Below are positions 8,202 through 60,413 of a stretch of DNA of 60,494 nt, one piece after another (the stretch's first letter is position 1; each line of letters begins with the position of its first letter). Made by a program: the position numbers and the translations under genes. The notes under the pieces were generated by a model that saw only the letters and a list, made by a program, of their open reading frames with translations, searched no databases and had not been told where the DNA came from. The stretch covers positions 1-60,494 of IMG/VR virus record IMGVR_UViG_3300032331_000843; one strand, written 5' to 3'. The stretch is from a virus. Lineage: Duplodnaviria > Caudoviricetes.

Positions 8202-8331
8202 AGACCGCTAGGATCTGTCGTTTCTAGGGGATAACACTGCGTAAATAGGCTCAAGAATACTTACGTAGTGCGAAACGGCAGACCATAACGGTCTATCTTG
8301 AGCCAGATTATAACACTGATACCCCTATCAG
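8202..8331 (-). ncRNA. C4/CI-like antisense RNA with upstream a1/b1 target boxes
   Basis: Long closing stem plus U-run; loop UCUUGAGCC complements upstream GGCUCAAGA; bulge CCCCUA complements upstream UAGGGG. Confidence 0.75.
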
Positions 8332-8338
8332 CTCGCCT

Positions 8339-8368
8339 AGTGTAATCTGAAAAGATTTATTTGTGCAA
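8339..8368 (-). promoter_or_regulatory. Sigma70 promoter for the RNA island
   Basis: TTGCAC-N18-TACACT. Confidence 0.65.
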
Positions 8369-8380
8369 GTGTTTTTTAAA

Positions 8381-8427
8381 ACGGGGACGGGGACGGGGAT
8401 TGCGGGGATTACGGGGAAGTTTCCCCG
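8381..8427 (+). repeat. CGGGGA x5 plus one inverted copy; G-quadruplex-capable
   Basis: GGGG at 8383, 8389, 8395, 8404, 8413; TCCCCG at 8422. Confidence 0.8.
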
Positions 8428-8465
8428 TTTCTGCCAAAAGCGACATCATGTCGTATTTGAAGACC

Positions 8466-8477
8466 GGTAACGTTACC
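8466..8477. promoter_or_regulatory. Recurrent 12-bp palindrome GGTAACGTTACC
   Basis: Exact copies at 23221 and 56294; 1-mismatch copies at 53944 and 57212. Confidence 0.65.
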
Positions 8478-8485
8478 ACCCATAT

Positions 8486-8537
8486 AAGGGTAAACACCTA
8501 CAGTAGGGACTCCCCTACTTCAATAGGTAATTCCCTA
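8486..8537. promoter_or_regulatory. Three imperfect TAGGG-N-CCCTA palindromes (operator-like)
   Basis: AAGGGTAAACACCTA, TAGGGACTCCCCTA, TAGGTAATTCCCTA. Confidence 0.55.
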
Positions 8538-8541
8538 CCTA

Positions 8542-8637
8542 CAAAAGACGAAACCCTCAGCGGAGGACTGAGGGTTTCTGAGGAAATGCACAAGAGGATT
8601 GTGCCTACGGAGGTCGTAGACTAACGGAGGGTTAGTG
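8542..8637 (-). ncRNA. Four-hairpin sRNA with anti-Shine-Dalgarno (CCUC/CCUCC) loops
   Basis: Extended -10 TGGTATAGT at 8643-8651; loops CCUCC, ACCUC, UCCUC, UCCUCCG; ends in a hairpin plus U-run. Confidence 0.75.
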
Positions 8638-8690
8638 CGCCAACTATACCATAGATTGATTTAGATGGATATGGACTAACTAAATCTAGT

Positions 8691-8770
8691 AAAAAAAGGG
8701 GGTGATCCACTTAGACCACCCCAAGCTCACGTTCTAAGGAACTGATGGGAAATGAAAGGGAACCCATCAG
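8691..8770 (-). terminator. rusA 3' UTR hairpins and intrinsic terminator (possible 3'-UTR sRNA)
   Basis: CUGAUGGG/CCCAUCAG hairpin; GGGGUGGUC/GAUCACCCC followed by U7. Confidence 0.7.
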
Positions 8771-9132
8771 CCACTACAGTTTACTAGATATTCCTTGATA
8801 GTAACTTGGCAACCACCACCTTTTTTCTTAGGCCCACGCTCTACCGTAATCTTCCAAACCTGTTGGTCATCTGTAAAACAGCCCGCGTCCTGGAGGCTGT
8901 CCCCAAGGCACTTCAGCATATTATCAATATCCATGAGACGGGAATCGCGGGGATACAGATAAACATTGAGTTCCACGGGATTATCCCCGAATCCCCCATG
9001 GCCGCACTGGCTCCATATATGAGCTACTGATTTCTTAAACTCTACCCCCCGCTTGGAAATATATCGGCGCTTACCAGATGCTAACCAGTAGGCGTTCACG
9101 CTGACGGGGTATGGCAGTTCTAGTGTAATCAT
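8767..9132 (-). CDS. rusA: RusA-family Holliday junction resolvase
   Basis: LPYPVSVNAYW; DIDNMLKCLGDSL..DDQQV. Confidence 0.92.
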   Translation of the reverse strand: MITLELPYPVSVNAYWLASGKRRYISKRGVEFKKSVAHIWSQCGHGGFGDNPVELNVYLYPRDSRLMDIDNMLKCLGDSLQDAGCFTDDQQVWKITVERGPKKKGGGCQVTIKEYLVNCSG

Positions 9133-9175
9133 GTGTTCCTAAATACAACTGTTGCATTTAATTGGGTACAACCTA

Positions 9176-9204
9176 TTGACATGCAGATTATACGGGATTA
9201 TATT
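9176..9204 (+). promoter_or_regulatory. Rightward sigma70 promoter overlapping a leftward -10
   Basis: TTGACA-N17-TATATT; TATAAT on - at 9187-9192. Confidence 0.7.
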
Positions 9205-9246
9205 GGCGGTGAGGAAATGTTTTTTAACGCACAACACGGAGGAAGT

Positions 9247-9411
9247 ATGGACTATTCAGAGTCAATTATTTACATTCGCACGTTCACTCGACGTTGCGAG
9301 GAATCAATCACTAAGAAAGACCTAGACAGGGCATTGGAAGATGCTGAGCATGTCGTTGCTGAGGCAATTCAATTGCGCTCCACCATCATGAAGATGAAGG
9401 AGTACGCATGA
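9247..9411 (+). CDS. Hypothetical protein (start 9247)
   Basis: ACGGAGG RBS. Confidence 0.65.
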   Translation: MDYSESIIYIRTFTRRCEESITKKDLDRALEDAEHVVAEAIQLRSTIMKMKEYA

Positions 9412-15468: not shown

Positions 15469-15742
15469 GAAACTTCTAAAGATTCTCAGACAGTCACCAT
15501 GCCAGCACTGCGGTTGCCAAGACGGAACCGTGGTCGCTGCTCACAGCAATCAACTCAGAGACGGCAAAGGCAGAGGCATCAAAGCACATGACTTCCGCAC
15601 GGCAAGTTTATGCTACGGTTGCCACATGGAGCTGGATCAGGGAAAGAACCTATCTAAGGCTGAGCGGGAAGAGTTATGGGAAAACGCCCATCGGAAAACA
15701 ATAGGATGGCTGTTTGAGAACGGCCACCTTACTGTTTCTTAG
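15455..15742 (+). CDS. DUF1364/DUF968-like Zn-binding nuclease-like protein
   Basis: PCQHCG..VVAAHSN..GKGRGIKAHD..LCYGCH. Confidence 0.75.
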   Translation: MYRNEKLLKILRQSPCQHCGCQDGTVVAAHSNQLRDGKGRGIKAHDFRTASLCYGCHMELDQGKNLSKAEREELWENAHRKTIGWLFENGHLTVS

Positions 15743-18700
15743 ACGCTTTCCTTACTTCTTCAACCATCCTAGAAGTTTCAGATATTAGGATTCTAGTTCT
15801 AGCAATCTCAAGCTCTTTCTCTTCCTTGCTCATGCTAGGATCTCTAGTAATCATCTGAATGTATTTACGGTACTCAGCCAAGCTCTTAGATGTCTTGTCG
15901 TACATCTTCTGCAAGGTAATCAAGTCGCCCTTCTTCTCGTAAATCTCAGCCACTTTCTCCAAGTCACCAATCTCGGTGTAACGCTTCATGTCAGCGAACG
16001 CCTGGTTGATTTTCTTGTTGTTGTCATAGAAAGCTGTAGCAAACTTAGATTGAGTCTCTGGCATAGTCTTGATAAAGCCCATACCAACCGTGTCAATCAA
16101 CGGTTTACCTGGCTTCTCTACCTCACTCCAAGGCTGAACGGCTTTGTCAGAAACAGATGCTGCCGTGCCTCCAAGCCAACCAAGATAAGCTTTGACAGCG
16201 TAGTCAACCTGAACTGGAGACATGCCTTCTGCTTCAGGACTCATTGTAAGAACCCTAGTCGCTGCTTGGCTAATACCGCCCAACGCCTTAGCTAGTGCGC
16301 TTGTGCTGTCAGTGTAGCGCTCTTGCTTAGATAAACGCTCAAGACCAGCTGACTCAATCGGCGCGCCAGTAAAGCTGTCCTTATTTGCATACAAGTCAAT
16401 CAATGGCTTGGCAAACTGTGGGATTGGGTTCAATGAGAATGTATCTGAAAGGATAGAGTGCATACGGTTTGCAAACACTTTACCTTCAACGTTCTCATCC
16501 ATAACCTGTTCAATCGTGCGCTCTGCAATCGTACCCAAAGCACCAATCTCAAACGGCTTAGGAATACGGTACTGAACGTCATTAATCTTGAACCACCAGA
16601 AGTTATCTCTGTCCCAGTCCTCACGGCGCTGGAAGTCTTCATCATCCTTGAATGTCAAGTAGAGGAGCGTAGATGCCAACATAACAGCACTAGACACAAC
16701 CATGAAACTCTGCGCCTTAATCTTGTCAGATGCCTCAATAGGCTTGCCAGTTGCTGTGTTGTAGATAAGTCTATACGTTGGAGTAATACCGTCTCTACCG
16801 AGCTTATACAAGCCCTGTAAACGTGCGTTGAAGAACGGAACCACCTGGGAAAGAACCTTAACCGCACGGAATGAACCCTGTGATGAGAAGTTCATTAAGT
16901 CTCGAGCTGCAAAAGACGCTTCCAAATGAGTCTTGCCTTCGTCAATTAGCTTCTGGTAAAGGGTTAAACGGTTAGCATTTTCAAAGCGATTACCCTGTTC
17001 GTTGTACCAATCCAAGGCTTTACCAAACATACCTTTGATTTTCTCAGGCGTATCAAGGATTGTGCCGTAGTTAACGCCCTTGTCTATCAAGCGCTTAATC
17101 ATCTTGGCTTGGTCGCCTTCGTGTGCAACACCCATCTCAAATACGCCACCACCTACCAAAGCTGACATGAATGTAGGATTACCACGGTCAGACAACTTAA
17201 GACCGTTGTAGACGTTAGTCATGATGTTCATACCAATTGGGCTAACAGCCGCCGCCTGTACAGAGTCACGCATTAAGTTGCGAATCTTATAGGCTGGAGA
17301 CAAAGTAACACCATAACGCAATGCGTTAGTAAACCCTTTGGCTACATCCAAGAACGGTGACTTAGGGCCTAGGTAGCTGATAAGGGAGATGGAGTCCACT
17401 AGATCTGGGTCAGTTACAGAATAGGCAACCTCATTGCCCTTCTCCATAATCTTAACAACGTCCTTCTTATCCACAAATCTACGCTCGCCATCTTCGGTAA
17501 CGTAGTACTGGGTAACACCCTTAACGGTAGTCTGTTTAACCTTCTCGGCTGCACCTAAATCAGCGGCTGCCTTCAATGTACTTTGAGCGGCGGCGTTCTT
17601 CATAGACGCAGACAAGATATGTGACCAGTTCATTAGAACGTTTTCCATCAAGTCGTTGGTCTTCTTCTCTCCACCCTTAAGCTTCTTAGAGAAGTATTGA
17701 CCAGTTAACTTAGAGGACGCATTCACTGAACCAACTTGCCCGTCTTCCATCTCTGAGTAGAACGGGATGTAGTAAATGTCACTAGCAAAGCGGGCGTATG
17801 CCTCATCGTCAATGATGCCTTGAGCTTTAGCAATATCAAGAACAGACCTGTTTAGCGCGTTCTCTTCCTTAAGAGCTGTCTCGTAAACCTGCTTACGTGG
17901 CACGCCATTAATCTCACCTTTGACCAATTCATCCCTGTAACCAATTAAGTCTTGGAATGAACGCTTATCTGCTGGCATTCGAGCATCACGGTTCAAAGCT
18001 TTCCAGATCTGGTACTGGTCTACTTCCTTACCCAATGGCTCAAGGATATCCAATAGACCTTTGGTTCCCTTTTTGATATTCAAGGCGCCGTTATCTAGCT
18101 CAACTTGACCGTAATACAACAATCCCTCAAGTGCACCGTCTGTAGACTTAGATAGCACGGACTTCATGTAGGCTTCGTTGGAATACTTCTTGATAGAGCG
18201 GAACTCGTCAAACAATCCCTGAATCAAACGCTCCGCCATGTTAGGACGCAACTGTTTAAACTTTTCCTGAATCGTTGCAGGAGTTTGTGTGAACTGAGCA
18301 ATAATTCTCTTGGCAACATCTGGGTTAACGTTACTTAAGTCAGCCTTCAACCTCTTAGGCGTAGGGATTTCTGCTTTTGGTTGTTTTGTTTCTTTAACAG
18401 ATTTATTACCAAGCCTAGAAATAGCTGTCTTTAACTGAGGTGACAAGTCAAATGAAGTTGGCTCCTGAATAATTGCTAAAACAGCCTGATGTGGGTAGTC
18501 AAACCCAAGCATCCCGTCTTTCTTTAGCTGGCGTAAGATGTACTGCTCTTCTTTAGTAGCCTGTTCATAAGCAGATTCAAAAGCTTCGTCTGGAGAAAAT
18601 GATTCATCATACGAACCCTGCATTCTTTTGTACATTGAAGTTAGAGTAGTTTCACGACCAAACTGATTTGGTTCATCTCGTTCGCTCCAAGCAGGAATTT

Positions 18701-21700
18701 CAGCACGGATATCAGCATCAGCTTGACTGAAATCACCAACGTTTCCAGTTGAAGACTTAATGTTGCCTGGGTTAAATACCTGAAGAGATTCAATTCTATT
18801 GCCATCCAAATCGTAGTCATAATGGAAAATAGAATCAAACCCTTGTTTCTTAAGGTCGTTGATGACCGCATCAGAAACGTTCTTGTCTGTGTATGAAGAT
18901 GTATACAAATAACTGTCTTCAGCATTCTGGTCGTACAAACCAAGCTTCTTGGCTGTATTAAGTACATCATCAGCTGAGGCAATGTTTTCCGCTTTGATGT
19001 AAACAGGCAGGATGTTTGCACCCTTAATGCCTTCAGACTCACCATCAAATCGTGCGCCTTGCTCGTATTCTTCTTTCAAAGCGTAAGAATTAGCGGCCTT
19101 TGGAGAGAACGTAAAGAACTGGTTAGGAGAGAACTTGGTAATGTCAGTTGCCGTTCCGTGATACATAACACGTGGCGCACCGTTTTTATCAACGACTTTA
19201 GAATTACCAAACCACTTTGCAAAACTATCAGCTCGATCTGCACGAATGTCATTATCTTGAATATTGAATTCACCAATATTTCCAGTAGCAGACTTAAGTT
19301 GGTTAGGCTCAAACGCAACCGCTTCCCAAATTGTTCCGTCTGGGTTCTTAATAACAATACCGTCATAACCTTCTTGCTTGGCTTGTTCAGTAATGTATTT
19401 AGAATGTTGTGGGCTATGACGAACCATACCAGTAGGCAAAACTTCTTTCTCGCCACCTTGATATATCTTAGGGTTAATCATGCGAACATATAAAGGAAGA
19501 ATGTTTCCACCTTTTGGTGGCGTCTTATCAAAGCCACCCCAATAAAGCTTAGTTCTGTCAGGCATTCCTGTTAAATAAACGCCATACCCAAAAGCACCAG
19601 CACCAGGCTTGAACTCATTAAAATCCTTGCGTGTGCCATGATATAAAACCATAGGCGTGCCATCAGGATTAACAATCTTACTGTCACCAAACCATGCGTC
19701 AAAAGCTTCTTTTCTATCCGCTGCATTAAGAGGTTCTTTTGTCTTCTGCTTGGCGGGCGCTTTAACTTCAACAGGTTCAGTTTGTTTTAACTTGCCTTCC
19801 GCTGCTTCAGCAAAGATGTCGTCAGCAATACGGAAACCTCTTCCACGCAACACGTTACCAATACGCTTAAGCATATCCAAAGCTTTAGCAATGATTGATT
19901 TAACTACTGGTGGCTGTGTCTGTCTATCAGCAAAAGCATCAGCAATTGCTTCTTCAATGCGTTCTTCTTGGCTTAAATTAGGATAACGCTGTTTAACGTT
20001 GTATTTCTGCAACCACTGTTTAGTTGCCATGTCAGACAACATCTTCCAGTCAGCATCAGAGAAGAATCCTAACTCCCTCATTGCGTGAATTGATTCGTGA
20101 TTCAACGTGCGTAATATGTTGTCGCCTGACAATGACACCTGGATAAGCTTGTCAAAGTAGTTACCGTTAACCTCAGTCATTCGTCCGTTGATTAACTGAT
20201 AGATAGAATCTTCTAGGTTTAGACCTACACCCTTTAGCCCCATCTTATCTAATGATGCACGCATATTCTTAGCCAGCGTCTCGCCTTCAGCTATGAACTT
20301 GTCTGTGTAATAACCTTGCGGTTGACGCATCTCAGCTTTAGGCTCAGGAAGAACGCCTTGCTCTACAGCTTGCTTGTACTCCATCTCAAGCGGTGCTGTT
20401 TCAGCGGAAATTTCCTGTGCTACAGGGGCGCCTTCAGGAACGAACTGTTCTTGCGGAACAGCTTGTGCTTGCGCCAGTATGTCCGCCTCTAGTTCAGCGC
20501 CTTCTAGGGGTGCTAAATCAGCTTCTGTAGGGGTTGGTTCAGGCTTAATCAAGGCACGTCTTTGACGGAACGCTTCCTCTAGCTGGTCAACTTGGGCATA
20601 AGCATCCTGCATCTTTGGAGTAACAACCACTTCTCCACGGAACGCATCCTGAATCATTTCAGTTAACTTGCGTACACCACCAACATCACCAGCCGCATCA
20701 ATGTCAGCCTGTGTCATGAAACCAGAATCTCTAGCACGAGTAGCTAACTCATCTAACTGCTGGCCATCAGGACGGAAAAGCTTACGCTTGTCGTTATTGG
20801 TGCTGATAACCTTGTTTTTGTTCTTCTTAGACTCGCCAAGAACGTCCATCATTTGGTCAGCTTTGACGCCTTGCTTGGTTAACCAGTTAGCAAACTCGTT
20901 AGTACCAAAGTCAATCGTCTTCATGGCATTGTCGTACTCCAACTGAATGATGTCTTCTTCAGTTGGGTCAACCATCACCTTATCCATCTTACGGAAAGAT
21001 TTCTTACCGCTATCATCGTAATACTTAAGCCACTCTGAGCCGTCTTTACGAGTAACTTTTTCGCCCTCAGTAACCTTTACAGATGAGTCACCTTCAGGAA
21101 CAAAGCCGAATCGAGTAATCTTTTCGCTAGAAACCTCTGGGATTTCTGGCATAGGATTGAACTTGCTCAATACTTCATTGATGCCTTCAGTGCCTAGCTG
21201 TGGAGCATACTTGGCGGCAAATGCGGCCTCATCTGATGTAGCAACAGACCCATCAGGGAATACAAAGTATGGCTTGATTGTTGGCTTATATGGCAATAAA
21301 CCAGCGATAACCTGTTCTTTAGGGGGAACAATGTTACCTTGCTCATCAAACTCAGCTGTAGAAAACGCAGACCCCTCAGCCTTACGCAAGTCTTCTTCAG
21401 CTTGTTTTGCCCTAGCTTGTTGGTTTAATTCATCTAGCTTTTGGTATGCCTTAGAGTTCTTTCTAGCCTGTAAATCACGGAACGCCTCAACACGAAGACG
21501 GTCAGCTTCATCCGCATAAGCCTCTCGTGTACCAAGTAATCCAGTATCTATTTCTTCTTCAGGAATTCTATTCTGTTCTTCTTGTAAGCGGGCAAGTTCT
21601 GCTTCACGGCGCGCTCTTGCACCCAAGGCAACACCAGCTGGGGCGCCAAATAAAGCACCGCCTAATGCACCCATAGAACTAGCCGCGCCAACACCCTTCA

Positions 21701-22604
21701 GCAACTCAGTCTCAGGGAATACTTCTTGAATACCAATGTTGCTGGCAAACTTTCCACCACCCTCTTCAAGACCCTCACTGACCGCCTCACCAATAGTACT
21801 CTTAAGGAATCCGCCAGTACCAGGCAACCCTTTACCAAGCATCGCTCTTTCAATAGACGCACCGCCTGGTAACTTAGAAGAAGCCAAACTTAAACCAGCC
21901 GCCTCAAGAGCAGCAACACGACCTTTAGCTAAAGCAATGCCCTGAGCTTCCTCTTCAGGCGTGCCTTCTTCTTTTAACCGTGAATAAATCTGTAAGTAAG
22001 TGTCATAACCTATATCTGTGCCTTGCATAACAGCACCACCAGCAAGGGCAGAGCCAACGCCAACTTTAGATACAGCCTCTTCAGTAGCATTCTTTAGTAG
22101 TAACTTAGCACCACCCTTACCCAAGGCGCCAAAACCAAACGACCCAATTAGGTTAGGTATTTGTTCAGAAAAGAAAGATGATAATAACGCTGGATCAGTA
22201 GCTAATCCCTTTAGTTGAACTCCAGCTTCTTCAAAGAAACCGTCCGCCTTAGCTACATCTCTAGCCAATAACTTTTCTTTAGCTACTAATGTAGGCGTCT
22301 TTAGTCCTTGAGCATACTTCTCAAGTTCTTGACCGTAACCTTGAATGCCAGAGTCTTGACGTTCAGGTGAAGACATACCAGCAAGCGTACCAAGTTGACC
22401 TGGTAACTGTATAAGATTACCAACACCCGCTAAAAGACTGGCACCAATGTCTTTAGTACCACCTAATAAGCCACGGGGAGCTTTAGCTTGAATCTCTGGA
22501 AACTGAGGAAGTATTTCTGTTTCAATGGCCGTCTGAATTTGTTCATTAGACATCTCATCTGGGAAGCTGACTTGGCCAACCCCCTGAATATTTACAATCG
22601 GCAT
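15729..22604 (-). CDS. Large polyvalent ejection protein: zincin metallopeptidase, two ADP-ribosyltransferase-like domains, LPD38-like C-terminus
   Basis: HESIH..EEAIADAF; two WFGxSKxVxxxGxPxVxYHGT..KSxTGN domains; VPFFNARLQG..RIPKPFEIG. Confidence 0.85.
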   Translation of the reverse strand: MPIVNIQGVGQVSFPDEMSNEQIQTAIETEILPQFPEIQAKAPRGLLGGTKDIGASLLAGVGNLIQLPGQLGTLAGMSSPERQDSGIQGYGQELEKYAQGLKTPTLVAKEKLLARDVAKADGFFEEAGVQLKGLATDPALLSSFFSEQIPNLIGSFGFGALGKGGAKLLLKNATEEAVSKVGVGSALAGGAVMQGTDIGYDTYLQIYSRLKEEGTPEEEAQGIALAKGRVAALEAAGLSLASSKLPGGASIERAMLGKGLPGTGGFLKSTIGEAVSEGLEEGGGKFASNIGIQEVFPETELLKGVGAASSMGALGGALFGAPAGVALGARARREAELARLQEEQNRIPEEEIDTGLLGTREAYADEADRLRVEAFRDLQARKNSKAYQKLDELNQQARAKQAEEDLRKAEGSAFSTAEFDEQGNIVPPKEQVIAGLLPYKPTIKPYFVFPDGSVATSDEAAFAAKYAPQLGTEGINEVLSKFNPMPEIPEVSSEKITRFGFVPEGDSSVKVTEGEKVTRKDGSEWLKYYDDSGKKSFRKMDKVMVDPTEEDIIQLEYDNAMKTIDFGTNEFANWLTKQGVKADQMMDVLGESKKNKNKVISTNNDKRKLFRPDGQQLDELATRARDSGFMTQADIDAAGDVGGVRKLTEMIQDAFRGEVVVTPKMQDAYAQVDQLEEAFRQRRALIKPEPTPTEADLAPLEGAELEADILAQAQAVPQEQFVPEGAPVAQEISAETAPLEMEYKQAVEQGVLPEPKAEMRQPQGYYTDKFIAEGETLAKNMRASLDKMGLKGVGLNLEDSIYQLINGRMTEVNGNYFDKLIQVSLSGDNILRTLNHESIHAMRELGFFSDADWKMLSDMATKQWLQKYNVKQRYPNLSQEERIEEAIADAFADRQTQPPVVKSIIAKALDMLKRIGNVLRGRGFRIADDIFAEAAEGKLKQTEPVEVKAPAKQKTKEPLNAADRKEAFDAWFGDSKIVNPDGTPMVLYHGTRKDFNEFKPGAGAFGYGVYLTGMPDRTKLYWGGFDKTPPKGGNILPLYVRMINPKIYQGGEKEVLPTGMVRHSPQHSKYITEQAKQEGYDGIVIKNPDGTIWEAVAFEPNQLKSATGNIGEFNIQDNDIRADRADSFAKWFGNSKVVDKNGAPRVMYHGTATDITKFSPNQFFTFSPKAANSYALKEEYEQGARFDGESEGIKGANILPVYIKAENIASADDVLNTAKKLGLYDQNAEDSYLYTSSYTDKNVSDAVINDLKKQGFDSIFHYDYDLDGNRIESLQVFNPGNIKSSTGNVGDFSQADADIRAEIPAWSERDEPNQFGRETTLTSMYKRMQGSYDESFSPDEAFESAYEQATKEEQYILRQLKKDGMLGFDYPHQAVLAIIQEPTSFDLSPQLKTAISRLGNKSVKETKQPKAEIPTPKRLKADLSNVNPDVAKRIIAQFTQTPATIQEKFKQLRPNMAERLIQGLFDEFRSIKKYSNEAYMKSVLSKSTDGALEGLLYYGQVELDNGALNIKKGTKGLLDILEPLGKEVDQYQIWKALNRDARMPADKRSFQDLIGYRDELVKGEINGVPRKQVYETALKEENALNRSVLDIAKAQGIIDDEAYARFASDIYYIPFYSEMEDGQVGSVNASSKLTGQYFSKKLKGGEKKTNDLMENVLMNWSHILSASMKNAAAQSTLKAAADLGAAEKVKQTTVKGVTQYYVTEDGERRFVDKKDVVKIMEKGNEVAYSVTDPDLVDSISLISYLGPKSPFLDVAKGFTNALRYGVTLSPAYKIRNLMRDSVQAAAVSPIGMNIMTNVYNGLKLSDRGNPTFMSALVGGGVFEMGVAHEGDQAKMIKRLIDKGVNYGTILDTPEKIKGMFGKALDWYNEQGNRFENANRLTLYQKLIDEGKTHLEASFAARDLMNFSSQGSFRAVKVLSQVVPFFNARLQGLYKLGRDGITPTYRLIYNTATGKPIEASDKIKAQSFMVVSSAVMLASTLLYLTFKDDEDFQRREDWDRDNFWWFKINDVQYRIPKPFEIGALGTIAERTIEQVMDENVEGKVFANRMHSILSDTFSLNPIPQFAKPLIDLYANKDSFTGAPIESAGLERLSKQERYTDSTSALAKALGGISQAATRVLTMSPEAEGMSPVQVDYAVKAYLGWLGGTAASVSDKAVQPWSEVEKPGKPLIDTVGMGFIKTMPETQSKFATAFYDNNKKINQAFADMKRYTEIGDLEKVAEIYEKKGDLITLQKMYDKTSKSLAEYRKYIQMITRDPSMSKEEKELEIARTRILISETSRMVEEVRKASKKQ

Positions 22605-57396: not shown

Positions 57397-57426
57397 TTGC
57401 ACAATTTAAAACTATTTGACTATAAT
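57397..57426 (+). promoter_or_regulatory. Early sigma70 promoter
   Basis: TTGCAC-N18-TATAAT with A/T-rich upstream sequence. Confidence 0.75.
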
Positions 57427-57454
57427 TAAAAGGCAACAACTAAACGGAGGATTT

Positions 57455-57679
57455 ATGCAACATTTACACAACTCAACGATTGAAGAATTGCACGAGCTAA
57501 CACGAGAGCAACTCATCACAATGTTAGTAAACCACGACCGAGACGGAGAGTATTCGGACGAGCAACGCACCGCATTGGGTGAGGACATTTTGAACCATCA
57601 AGAGGCTTTGAGCCTTGCAGTTTTCCACTTGAACGAAGTAATAGAGGGCGAAATTTTAAAAAACTTGGGAGGCAAATAA
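57455..57679 (+). CDS. Early hypothetical protein
   Basis: AACGGAGG RBS; TREQLI..DRDGEYSDE. Confidence 0.7.
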   Translation: MQHLHNSTIEELHELTREQLITMLVNHDRDGEYSDEQRTALGEDILNHQEALSLAVFHLNEVIEGEILKNLGGK

Positions 57680-58923: not shown

Positions 58924-58944
58924 ATACAACCAACGGAGGAAATT

Positions 58945-59214
58945 ATGGAATACCCAATCGTTTTAACTGGTGATAGTCGCTCAATTTATGCGTGCGAATG
59001 GAATGGCGATATATACGAGATTCACACCCTTGAAAGCTTGCAGAAGGAATATGGCGAGACGAATCTTTTTGATACTGAACCTTCTTGGTTCTGCCCAAAT
59101 GCCCGAATCAATTTGACCTTTTTGGAAGTGATTGCAGAGCTAGAGGCGGGCGAGTATGACCGTATCACCAACGACAATATGACCATCACGATATTGAAAA
59201 GAGGTGAATTATGA
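58945..59214 (+). CDS. Early hypothetical protein
   Basis: AACGGAGG RBS. Confidence 0.7.
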   Translation: MEYPIVLTGDSRSIYACEWNGDIYEIHTLESLQKEYGETNLFDTEPSWFCPNARINLTFLEVIAELEAGEYDRITNDNMTITILKRGEL

Positions 59215-59646: not shown

Positions 59647-59760
59647 ATGCGTTATGTATGCGGAGGCAGACTGTTTGACACGCTTGAGGAGGCGAAACAG
59701 TATGCTGATTTTATTCACAGAGTAAGTCGTTTAATTATAAGTATCACGGAGGAAGTATGA
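59647..59760 (+). CDS. 37-aa early protein
   Basis: FDTLEEAKQYA; AGGAGG RBS. Confidence 0.6.
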   Translation: MRYVCGGRLFDTLEEAKQYADFIHRVSRLIISITEEV

Positions 59761-59978
59761 AATTCAACTTAGTTATATATGTGCCTGATGAGGCTATTGA
59801 GCAAGCATCAAAAGAGTTTGAGATGCCTACTGATGAACTAATCAGCAAGATTGGTAACACTTGTTATTTAGGTCTTGATTGTATTAACGCCATGCTTGGT
59901 CGCCAGTATGAATTAGAGGCGGGCGACTGGTATGTCTCTTCCATTATGGGAGATGACGACACTGTTCACGCAGATTAA
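59757..59978 (+). CDS. Early hypothetical protein
   Basis: ACGGAGG RBS. Confidence 0.65.
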   Translation: MKFNLVIYVPDEAIEQASKEFEMPTDELISKIGNTCYLGLDCINAMLGRQYELEAGDWYVSSIMGDDDTVHAD

Positions 59979-59988
59979 CGGAGGAAAT

Positions 59989-60159
59989 ATGAATTACACA
60001 GAAAAAACTTGGGGTGAGTTATATGGTGACACTTACCCAACCGATAAAGAATTACCGATTGAGGTAATTGAACACCACGCACAAGCTCATGGCTTAATCG
60101 CAAGTGATGATTTGCTTATGTTTGCTCGTGCATTATGGACGGAGGGGAAATTGTCATGA
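59989..60159 (+). CDS. Early hypothetical protein
   Basis: TAACGGAGG RBS. Confidence 0.65.
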   Translation: MNYTEKTWGELYGDTYPTDKELPIEVIEHHAQAHGLIASDDLLMFARALWTEGKLS

Positions 60160-60413
60160 AAATATATCTAGCACAAGGCGAAAGCCGTAGTTTTGAATTC
60201 TCTGCCATTGGTTTGACTGAGGCAGAGGCAGAACACGCCATCATTGAAACATTCAAGGCCCATGCTCGGCACTATGCCCTACCCCTAGACTGGTGGAAGG
60301 AAAACGCAGACTTTTTCATTATGGAAATGGAGACGGGTCATTACTACCGAGACCGCTCTTTAATTAACCCGAAGTGGTATCACTCAGACGATCTGGAGGA
60401 ATCAAATGCCTAA
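60156..60413 (+). CDS. Early hypothetical protein
   Basis: ESRSFEFSAIG..EAEA; ACGGAGGG upstream. Confidence 0.65.
   Translation: MKIYLAQGESRSFEFSAIGLTEAEAEHAIIETFKAHARHYALPLDWWKENADFFIMEMETGHYYRDRSLINPKWYHSDDLEESNA

Follow-up and report, generated by a model that had tools for sequence, protein, structure and literature searches.

The element described here lies on the minus strand of the virus record IMGVR_UViG_3300032331_000843, the whole of which (60,494 bp) was analyzed and is called the window below. The record is complete, with 123-bp direct terminal repeats (DTR) and 44% G+C. Gene starts came from a heuristic caller of open reading frames (ORFs) and Shine-Dalgarno (SD) sites, not from a validated gene finder. 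It called 97 genes, and PHROG matches outlined four gene blocks: a run of small ORFans, a replication block, a recombination block, and a structural block (Table 1). In the replication block, the RusA gene is followed by an array of hairpins whose loops resemble the anti-SD sequence of ribosomal RNA (rRNA), and about 360 nt downstream of this array lies a Betaproteobacteria-1 RNA (RF02932), which does not overlap it. The array is referred to as the small RNA (sRNA).

The sRNA sequence begins with an extended -10 promoter element lacking a clear -35, and transcription presumably starts at about 8636-8638. Three hairpins follow, with the loops CCUCC, ACCUC, and UCCUC in that order, and then a single-stranded linker, AUUUCCUCA, in which UUUCCUC provides a fifth anti-SD motif and which is fully accessible in the model (opening energy 0.0). 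The fourth hairpin belongs to an intrinsic terminator; its loop is UCCUC, or UCCUCCG when the last pairs are open. A preliminary description of this DNA had listed the same parts, and the sequence and RNAfold confirmed all of them. RNAfold returned exactly these four hairpins at -38.1 kcal/mol (z = -4.65), and none of 200 shuffled sequences folded as well. The motif CCUCCGU, previously reported for hairpins 1 and 2, is present in both, with the nuance that it begins in the loop and continues into the 3' arm of the stem. In all three CCUCC motifs of the sRNA the next base is G, versus U in rRNA. The U-tract of the terminator is weak in this phage, making read-through possible. A separate strong terminator belonging to RusA lies upstream of the hairpins, and the sRNA is thus its own transcription unit.

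To quantify the clustering of the hairpins, both strands were searched for stems of at least 5 Watson-Crick pairs closing a loop of 4-8 nt that contained CCTC. The whole window held six such hairpins, four of them within the 87 bases of 8550-8636 on the minus strand. The largest cluster per 100 nt in 200 shuffles was two (mean 1.04), and the clustering is far beyond chance.

Table 1. Positions of the sRNA, its neighbors, its predicted target sites, and the gene blocks in the window
Feature	Position	Strand	Basis or predicted energy
Extended -10 promoter element TGGTATAGT	8643..8651	-	sequence
Hairpin 1, stem ACUAAC/GUUAGU	8620..8636 (17 nt)	-	sequence, RNAfold
Hairpin 2, stem CUACG/CGUAG	8605..8619 (15 nt)	-	sequence, RNAfold
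Hairpin 3, stem GCACAA/UUGUGC	8588..8604 (17 nt)	-	sequence, RNAfold
Single-stranded linker	8579..8587	-	RNAfold
Intrinsic terminator, 12-bp stem GAAACCCUCAG.../...CUGAGGGUUUC (hairpin 8550-8578), tail GUCUUUUGU (8541-8549)	8541..8578	-	RNAfold, consensus scan
RusA gene	8767-9132	-	identity from relatives annotated as RusA
RusA terminator, strong	8699..8722	-	consensus terminator scan
Betaproteobacteria-1 RNA	8057-8182	-	91.2 bits
ACGGAGG ribosome binding site (RBS), 54-amino acid gene 9247-9411, first of the rightward recombination operon; predicted target	9236..9242	+	-6.1 kcal/mol
ACGGAGG RBS, gene 57455-57679, first small ORF after a sigma-70-like promoter; predicted target	57444..57450	+	-8.7 kcal/mol
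ACGGAGG RBS, gene 58945-59214; predicted target	58933..58939	+	-6.7 kcal/mol
ACGGAGG RBS, gene 59757-59978; predicted target	59746..59752	+	-7.1 kcal/mol
ACGGAGG RBS, gene 59989-60159, UAACGGAGG, 9-nt match; predicted target	59978..59984	+	-10.2 kcal/mol
ACGGAGG RBS, gene 60156-60413, spacing 10 nt; predicted target	60139..60145	+	-9.2 kcal/mol
UGCACAGGAGGAU at RBS of 492-amino acid helicase gene (3778-5256); top-ranked predicted site	5260..5272	-	-11.6 kcal/mol
Sigma-70-like promoter TGCACA-17-TATAAT before the first ACGGAGG small ORF	57398-57426	+	sequence
Small-ORFan run	57,455 across terminal repeat to 1,659	+	PHROG scan
Replication block: DNA methyltransferase, helicase, ParB-like protein, non-coding RNAs, RusA	1,798-9,132	-	PHROG matches
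Recombination block: exonuclease, Erf-like annealing protein, endonuclease	from 9,247	+	PHROG matches
Structural block: tail fiber, head, portal, large terminase	15,729-56,691	-	PHROG matches

Relatives of RusA were collected from viral contigs, metagenome contigs, and genome contigs, and a unit was scored when the RusA strand had at least two CCUC motifs ahead of an intrinsic terminator. Of the 105 loci whose sequence extended 120 nt or more past RusA, 42 carried such a unit, representing 25 distinct sequences. The CCUC motifs of these 25 units were unpaired in the minimum free energy structure in 59 of 69 cases, compared with 46% of all nucleotides; 43 of the motifs lay in hairpin loops, which were closed by 17 distinct stem arms. 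In 19 of the 25 units, the 52 nt preceding the first CCUC contained TGnTAnnnT, compared with 4.3% of background 52-nt windows. Across the family the number of hairpins ranged from one to four and the loop size from 4 to 12 nt, and CCUC motifs were also found in unstructured linkers.

The units formed three groups, between which the stems were replaced outright. In group A (this phage and L002-L007), two or three hairpins are joined by a terminator that also has an anti-SD loop. Group B (L008-L013, L018, L020, L026, and others) combines the hairpin AUACC/UUCCUC/GGUAU with a variable second one containing (U/C)UCCUC(U). Group C (L034, L053, L069-L074, L118, L145, and others; units at L034:3111-3197, L053:4396-4483, L069:3396-3483, and L071:3396-3481) has the first-hairpin loop UUUCUUCAUU, a linker AUCCUCC(G/U/A), and a hairpin GCAC/..CCUCC../GUGC; its terminators have at least five different stems around the constant loop CUAAUCC. 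The two constant loops of group C are not anti-SD and may be additional seeds. Of the 13 relatives' loci scanned, 11 had the Betaproteobacteria-1 RNA after the sRNA (L003, L006, L008, L009, L010, L026, L053, L057, L069, L118, and L145).

That the loops are conserved while the stems change freely, and that promoter and terminator share a strand, indicates an RNA acting through its loops. A DNA-binding palindrome is unlikely, because such sites conserve their arms and here it is the loops that are conserved. With E values of up to 10 allowed, Rfam reported no family on the element of this phage, and with a limit of 0.01 none on the element in the 13 loci of relatives. No description of such a phage RNA was found in a literature search that fell short of most subscription journals and supplements. 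We conclude that the element is real and represents a conserved family of phage sRNAs with anti-SD loops that had not been cataloged before; its members occur in uncultured freshwater phages, where they lie between RusA and the Betaproteobacteria-1 RNA.

The plus strand folds with similar stability (-38.8 kcal/mol, z = -3.73) and presents GGA in four loops and the linker. These multiple GGA motifs are what a CsrA/RsmA sponge would display, and such a sponge had been offered as an alternative in the preliminary description. However, the plus strand has no promoter-like site upstream and no terminator downstream of the element; the sole plus-strand promoter call, at 9176-9204, lies beyond it. 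On the plus strand of this phage and of all relatives that were read, A-runs precede the GC hairpin and no U-runs follow it, whereas the conserved TGnTAnnnT and the U-tracts lie on the minus (RusA) strand. Nor did any Rfam model of the CsrB/RsmX/Y/Z type match, even with E values of up to 10 allowed. The orientation of promoter and terminator led us to reject the sponge, which we regard as exceedingly improbable.

The locus might instead be a cis-acting feature, for example the 3' part or a group of terminators of the RusA transcript, a leader for the non-coding RNAs that follow, or a DNA-level feature of the adjoining operator/iteron region. Its setting, a non-coding stretch of about 700 bp with palindromes, CCCCGU iterons, and further structured RNAs, would suit such a role, as would read-through of the weak sRNA terminator. 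Against this, RusA is already terminated upstream, and the conserved -10 element stands between the RusA terminator and the hairpins. The arms that a DNA site for a protein would conserve are the part that varies, and the next promoter, TTGCAC-17-TACACT (about 8340-8310, recognized by eye and not called by the consensus scan), comes after the unit. We therefore consider a cis-acting element very unlikely.

Three further identities were considered and rejected on anatomical grounds only. For a coding function, neither the plus-strand ORF at 8361-8624 nor the minus-strand ORFs have a Pfam family, and relatives carry other sequence in the flanks. For a CRISPR-repeat-like anti-CRISPR RNA, the hairpin stems are mutually unrelated and there is no tandem repeat. 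For a type III toxin-antitoxin RNA (ToxI-like), there is no tandem repeat over 8541-8651, the stems are unrelated, and the downstream ORFs have no Pfam family.

The complement of the CCUCCGU motif, ACGGAGG, occurs 11 times in the window against an expectation of 3.33 +/- 1.79, and none of 100 shuffles reached 11. Two of the copies are the sRNA itself, and three are away from gene starts (1925+, 3141-, and 28550-). The other six end 4-10 nt ahead of the ATG of small plus-strand ORFs. These are the six genes named in the preliminary description, which had also reported 8-9-nt matches at several of them and a preference of late genes for AGGAG or AAGG. Exact complementarity to the sRNA extended to 8-9 nt at four of the six sites, and the structural genes were found to use AGGAG, AAGG, or AGGA. 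The resulting split of SD type by gene block was sharp: the genes with GGAGG no more than 20 nt from the start numbered 9 of 19 in the small-ORF operon, 2 of 11 in the replication block, 2 of 17 in the recombination block, and 0 of 44 in the structural block.

Predicted pairing was scored for each initiation region (-25 to +5) with contiguous helices, combining the nearest-neighbor energy of the duplex with the cost of opening each partner. Whole-molecule duplexfold was set aside because it gave unrealistic long duplexes with large internal loops. All six ACGGAGG genes ranked within the top 9 of 96 initiation regions (-6.1 to -10.2 kcal/mol), in agreement with their earlier designation as targets. 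The most accessible 7-nt match to CGGAGGA was the terminator loop UCCUCCG, with an opening cost of 1.9 kcal/mol and a duplex energy of -11.3 kcal/mol, versus -7.0 for CCUCC:GGAGG. Scores of -6 kcal/mol or lower were obtained for 6 of 18 genes in the small-ORF operon, 2 of 11 in replication, 1 of 17 in recombination, and 0 of 44 in the structural block, and the binding scores of the small-ORF operon and structural block differed (Mann-Whitney p = 0.003). This regional contrast follows the plain difference in SD type between the blocks. The top-ranked site, at the helicase RBS, is predicted to pair with hairpin 3 over 13 pairs (one of them G-U), which would need hairpin 3 to be fully open, and it is only partly kept in the relative G002.

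We propose, with moderate confidence, that the sRNA is a trans-acting repressor that masks SD sites of the GGAGG/GAGGA type, and that its best candidate targets are the small-ORF operon and the first recombination gene. An RNA of about 95 nt, transcribed independently from about 8638 to 8543 on the minus strand, would display four to five anti-SD motifs (CCUCC/UCCUC) in its pentaloops, linker, and terminator loop. By pairing in trans with GGAGG/GAGGA-type SD sequences it would block 30S binding, the best sites being the (A)CGGAGG(A) RBSs of the first recombination gene and of the small-ORF operon beside the terminal repeat. The canonical tail of 16S rRNA is CCUCCU; at CGGAGG sites the sRNA would form 7-9 pairs versus 5 by that tail. 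Structural genes would be spared because they use AGGAG or AAGG and have no GGAGG. Accumulation of the RNA would then selectively damp one gene class, and, given the complementarity of its loops to RBSs, the sRNA probably blocks translation of a subset of genes. If so, these phages would time or partition translation by one short RNA rather than by a protein, with the type of RBS as the address.

The preliminary description went further, and had a single RNA shutting off an early regulon through a shared RBS barcode. In its strongest form this would be an RNA-only gene-class switch, in which CCUCCG heads out-compete the CCUCCU tail of the ribosome at a class of genes marked by CGGAGG and late genes are spared. 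Discrimination would depend on the single base by which the heads differ from rRNA, and this base would co-evolve with the sites. The contribution of the flanking bases was assessed by keeping the CCUC cores and the secondary structure of the sRNA and permuting the other loop bases and the stem pairs (1445 trials for this phage). The observed values for this phage were 9 genes at -6 kcal/mol or lower, 4 at -8 or lower, and a top-10 sum of -78.2. For its close relative G002, which has seven ACGGAGG sites, randomized sRNAs reached the three observed values in 0.2%, 5%, and 2% of trials; G000 and G002 are closely related and do not count as independent cases.

Covariation was examined at the orthologous small MDYSES... 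gene next to RusA (9247-9411 here), which is shared by groups A and C. In four lineages the base before GGAGG was C, and the base after CCUCC was G in 10 of 10 motifs. Where the base before GGAGG was A, the linker motif had U in the L053/L069/L071/L146 type and in L145/L147. The tally is thus C with G in four lineages and A with U in two of three A-GGAGG lineages. Within group C, 3 of 4 lineages had a linker motif complementary to the base before GGAGG, a result expected by chance in about 5% of cases if the lineages are independent.

A number of results weigh against these proposals. Opening the heptamer in hairpins 1 and 2 requires the disruption of 2-3 stem pairs, at a cost of 3.4-4.5 kcal/mol. 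Alignment with MAFFT and RNAalifold gave 2 compensatory pairs in subgroup B, 2 in C, and 1 in A; the number is small because the distinct sequences are few and the variable stems misalign. Metatranscriptome contigs (four runs from two studies, compared over 7900-9400) included none over 8308-8817, a result of little weight, as an RNA of 95 nt is seldom recovered in contigs; those of relatives, 90-99% alike, spanned 7919-8295 and parts of RusA. That the small-ORF genes are early genes we infer from their position, their familyless ORFans, and the sigma-70-like promoter. With regard to the barcode, flank-randomized sRNAs equaled or exceeded the three statistics of this phage in 20%, 9%, and 5% of trials. 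The same randomization was not significant in G003 and G005, and the 1.2% obtained for G004 includes an artifactual "gene" antisense to the sRNA, which inflates the result. Cross-matching of sRNAs and site sets among five genomes (matches of at least 7 nt) gave no clean diagonal. In the L118/L122 lineage the base before GGAGG is A and the linker motif also has A, a mismatch. Phages of the L053/L069 type use AACGGAGGA at a second, neighboring gene despite an sRNA with CCUCCU/CCUCCC, and the small-ORF operon of G003 uses AAGGAGCAAGC, which is unmatched by the sRNA of G003.

On balance, the generic anti-SD core explains most of the binding predicted by the model, and the presence of G after CCUCC, in place of the U of rRNA, may sharpen binding in this clade. 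Of the earlier proposal, the multi-loop anti-SD unit and the six real sites stood, and specificity beyond the CCUC core was weak; covariation between sRNA and RBS was seen in 3 of 4 group C lineages and failed in L118/L122. Shut-off of an early regulon through a shared barcode is plausible for this clade, statistically marginal, and not general across the family, and we put forward the RNA-only gene-class switch as a tentative and rather doubtful extension of SD masking.

The weak contribution of the flanks bears equally on a different set of targets. The same RNA, pairing in the same way, might act mainly on host mRNAs, masking their strong SD sites for shut-off or reprogramming, with the phage matches as a by-product. 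The predicted binding comes mostly from the generic CCUC core, the loop motif and not its flanks is conserved across the family, and sRNAs of other clades match the RBSs of this phage about as often as its own sRNA does. Nevertheless, a generic mask would also strike the phage's own GGAGG genes, which make up 9 of 19 in one operon, and the G after all three CCUCC motifs suits the CGGAGG sites of the phage and not the AGGAGG consensus. We consider it unlikely that host mRNAs are the main targets.

Pairing itself could be incidental if the CCUC(C) pentaloops served as a decoy or scaffold that titrates or recruits a host or phage RNA-binding protein. Several similar hairpins with a conserved loop and free stems are also the pattern of protein-sponge RNAs, weak flank specificity fits a protein as well as it fits a generic seed, and group C has two more conserved loops, UUUCUUCAUU and CUAAUCC, neither of them anti-SD. 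However, we know of no bacterial protein that recognizes CCUC loops, and no RNA-binding domain was detected in the neighboring small ORFs (8 ORFs against Pfam and 10 small ORFs against PHROG). The occurrence of motifs in linkers and the variation in loop size suit base pairing better than a fixed protein site. We judge a protein decoy to be quite improbable, and SD masking of phage genes remains the reading that we prefer.

The proposed masking was compared with known systems. The phage RNA c4 has an Rfam model; no Rfam hit was found on the element, and the ORFs after the sRNA have no family match. According to the available text on c4 of phages P1 and P7, its loops pair around the RBS of a phage gene and block translation (PMC12197685), so that a phage small RNA masking a phage RBS is common to both. 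The c4 RNA as described there acts on a single specific target, encoded in the same operon, and serves the immunity of a temperate phage, whereas here several generic heads face many candidate sites in a DTR phage with no integrase seen among its annotated genes, not all of which were scanned.

The alphaproteobacterial sRNAs cuckoo, RSs0680 (CcsR), and alpha-r14 (NfeR1) have two to four adjacent hairpins with an anti-SD-like loop motif, as far as the available part of PMC4615179 describes them; anti-SD loops in cuckoo/CcsR sRNAs had also been named in the preliminary description. The published matcher uses the loop motif CCUCCUCCC, loops of 9-27 nt, and hairpins of 24-50 nt (PMC4615179, same sections). 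The resemblance lies in adjacent hairpins without multiloops, freely varying stems, a variable number of hairpins, and a terminator at the end (PMC4615179, in the portion available). The differences are that the loops here are 5 nt long (CCUCC/ACCUC/UCCUC) on hairpins of 15-17 nt and not CCUCCUCCC, and that the cuckoo sRNAs are chromosomal in Alphaproteobacteria, whereas the present one is phage-borne in a 60.5-kb DTR virus record. There were no matches to CCTCCTCCC in the window, and an Rfam scan of the element detected no sequence or model similarity to the cuckoo family. Gram-positive sRNAs also use C-rich hairpin-loop seeds against RBSs, namely the UCCC loops of RNAIII and the Rsa RNAs, several of which pair with many mRNAs (PMC4615179, available text), and 6C (PMC6486639, available text), with other motifs and hosts and in a chromosomal setting.

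A functional parallel would be a protein. The T4 endoribonuclease RegB inactivates early mRNAs at GGAG in the SD sequence and late transcripts escape, as summarized in the accessible text of PMC3014915; its selectivity for a gene class through SD sequence has a likeness in the SD dichotomy of this phage. RegB is a cleaving enzyme, whereas the sRNA is proposed to mask. If the gene-class switch existed, it would be the base-pairing counterpart of RegB. In any case, the 25 distinct sequences from freshwater viromes define a conserved, easily recognized family with a simple, testable mechanism.

To our knowledge, hardly any work has dealt with small RNAs in lytic or uncultured phages. The large terminase of this phage is 58% identical to that of phage DSL-LC04 and 56% to that of Pelagibacter phage HTVC027P, and its RusA is 45% identical to that of Methylophilales phage MEP301; the nearest named phages are aquatic. 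The DNA runs that contain the stretch are labeled as freshwater, lake, or drinking-water metagenomes. No match to 8000-9200 was found by blastn against 50,697 phage records, and RusA alone found no relative among genome contigs. No tRNA genes were found in the window, and neither an integrase nor a phage RNA polymerase was among the 30 window proteins scanned, which do not cover all genes. Eight of 10 small ORFs had no PHROG family and the other two matched only families of unknown function; Pfam gave no families for 8 ORFs near the sRNA. The PHROG matches of a 2291-amino acid protein (15729-22604, minus strand) were likewise all of unknown function.

Alignment of RusA led to one contig of a genome collection, L053 (9.8 kb), from a metagenome-assembled genome (MAG) labeled uncultured Bacteroidetes. 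It carries RusA, a group C sRNA, and a Betaproteobacteria-1 RNA, and is probably a phage contig binned into a Bacteroidetes MAG. We take the label as a binning accident because the strong SD usage of the phage argues against such a host.

The recurrence of the Betaproteobacteria-1 RNA beside the RusA-linked sRNA indicates that this orphan Rfam motif is a phage RNA here, and gives it a genomic partner and a phage setting. A search for the name found no relevant main text in the literature; the original description is presumably in supplements. A long, near-perfect hairpin of about 30 pairs (8192-8302, minus strand) lies between the TTGCAC-17-TACACT promoter and this RNA. Its match to mir-586 (E 0.011, far below gathering) is spurious, and the hairpin is kept in the sequences of relatives.

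Several small repeats are also found close to the sRNA. Three to four copies of an iteron-like CCCCGU repeat (ACGGGG units at 8381-8417), the sole tandem arrays, adjoin it. A GGTAACGTTACC palindrome and two palindromes of the TAGGGnAnTnCCCTA type lie nearby (8465-8476 and 8500-8540, minus strand), and the related palindromes AGGGTAAACCCT and GTCAACGTTGAC recur in relatives. Near a ParB-like gene, such iterons and palindromes could be operator, origin, or partition sites.

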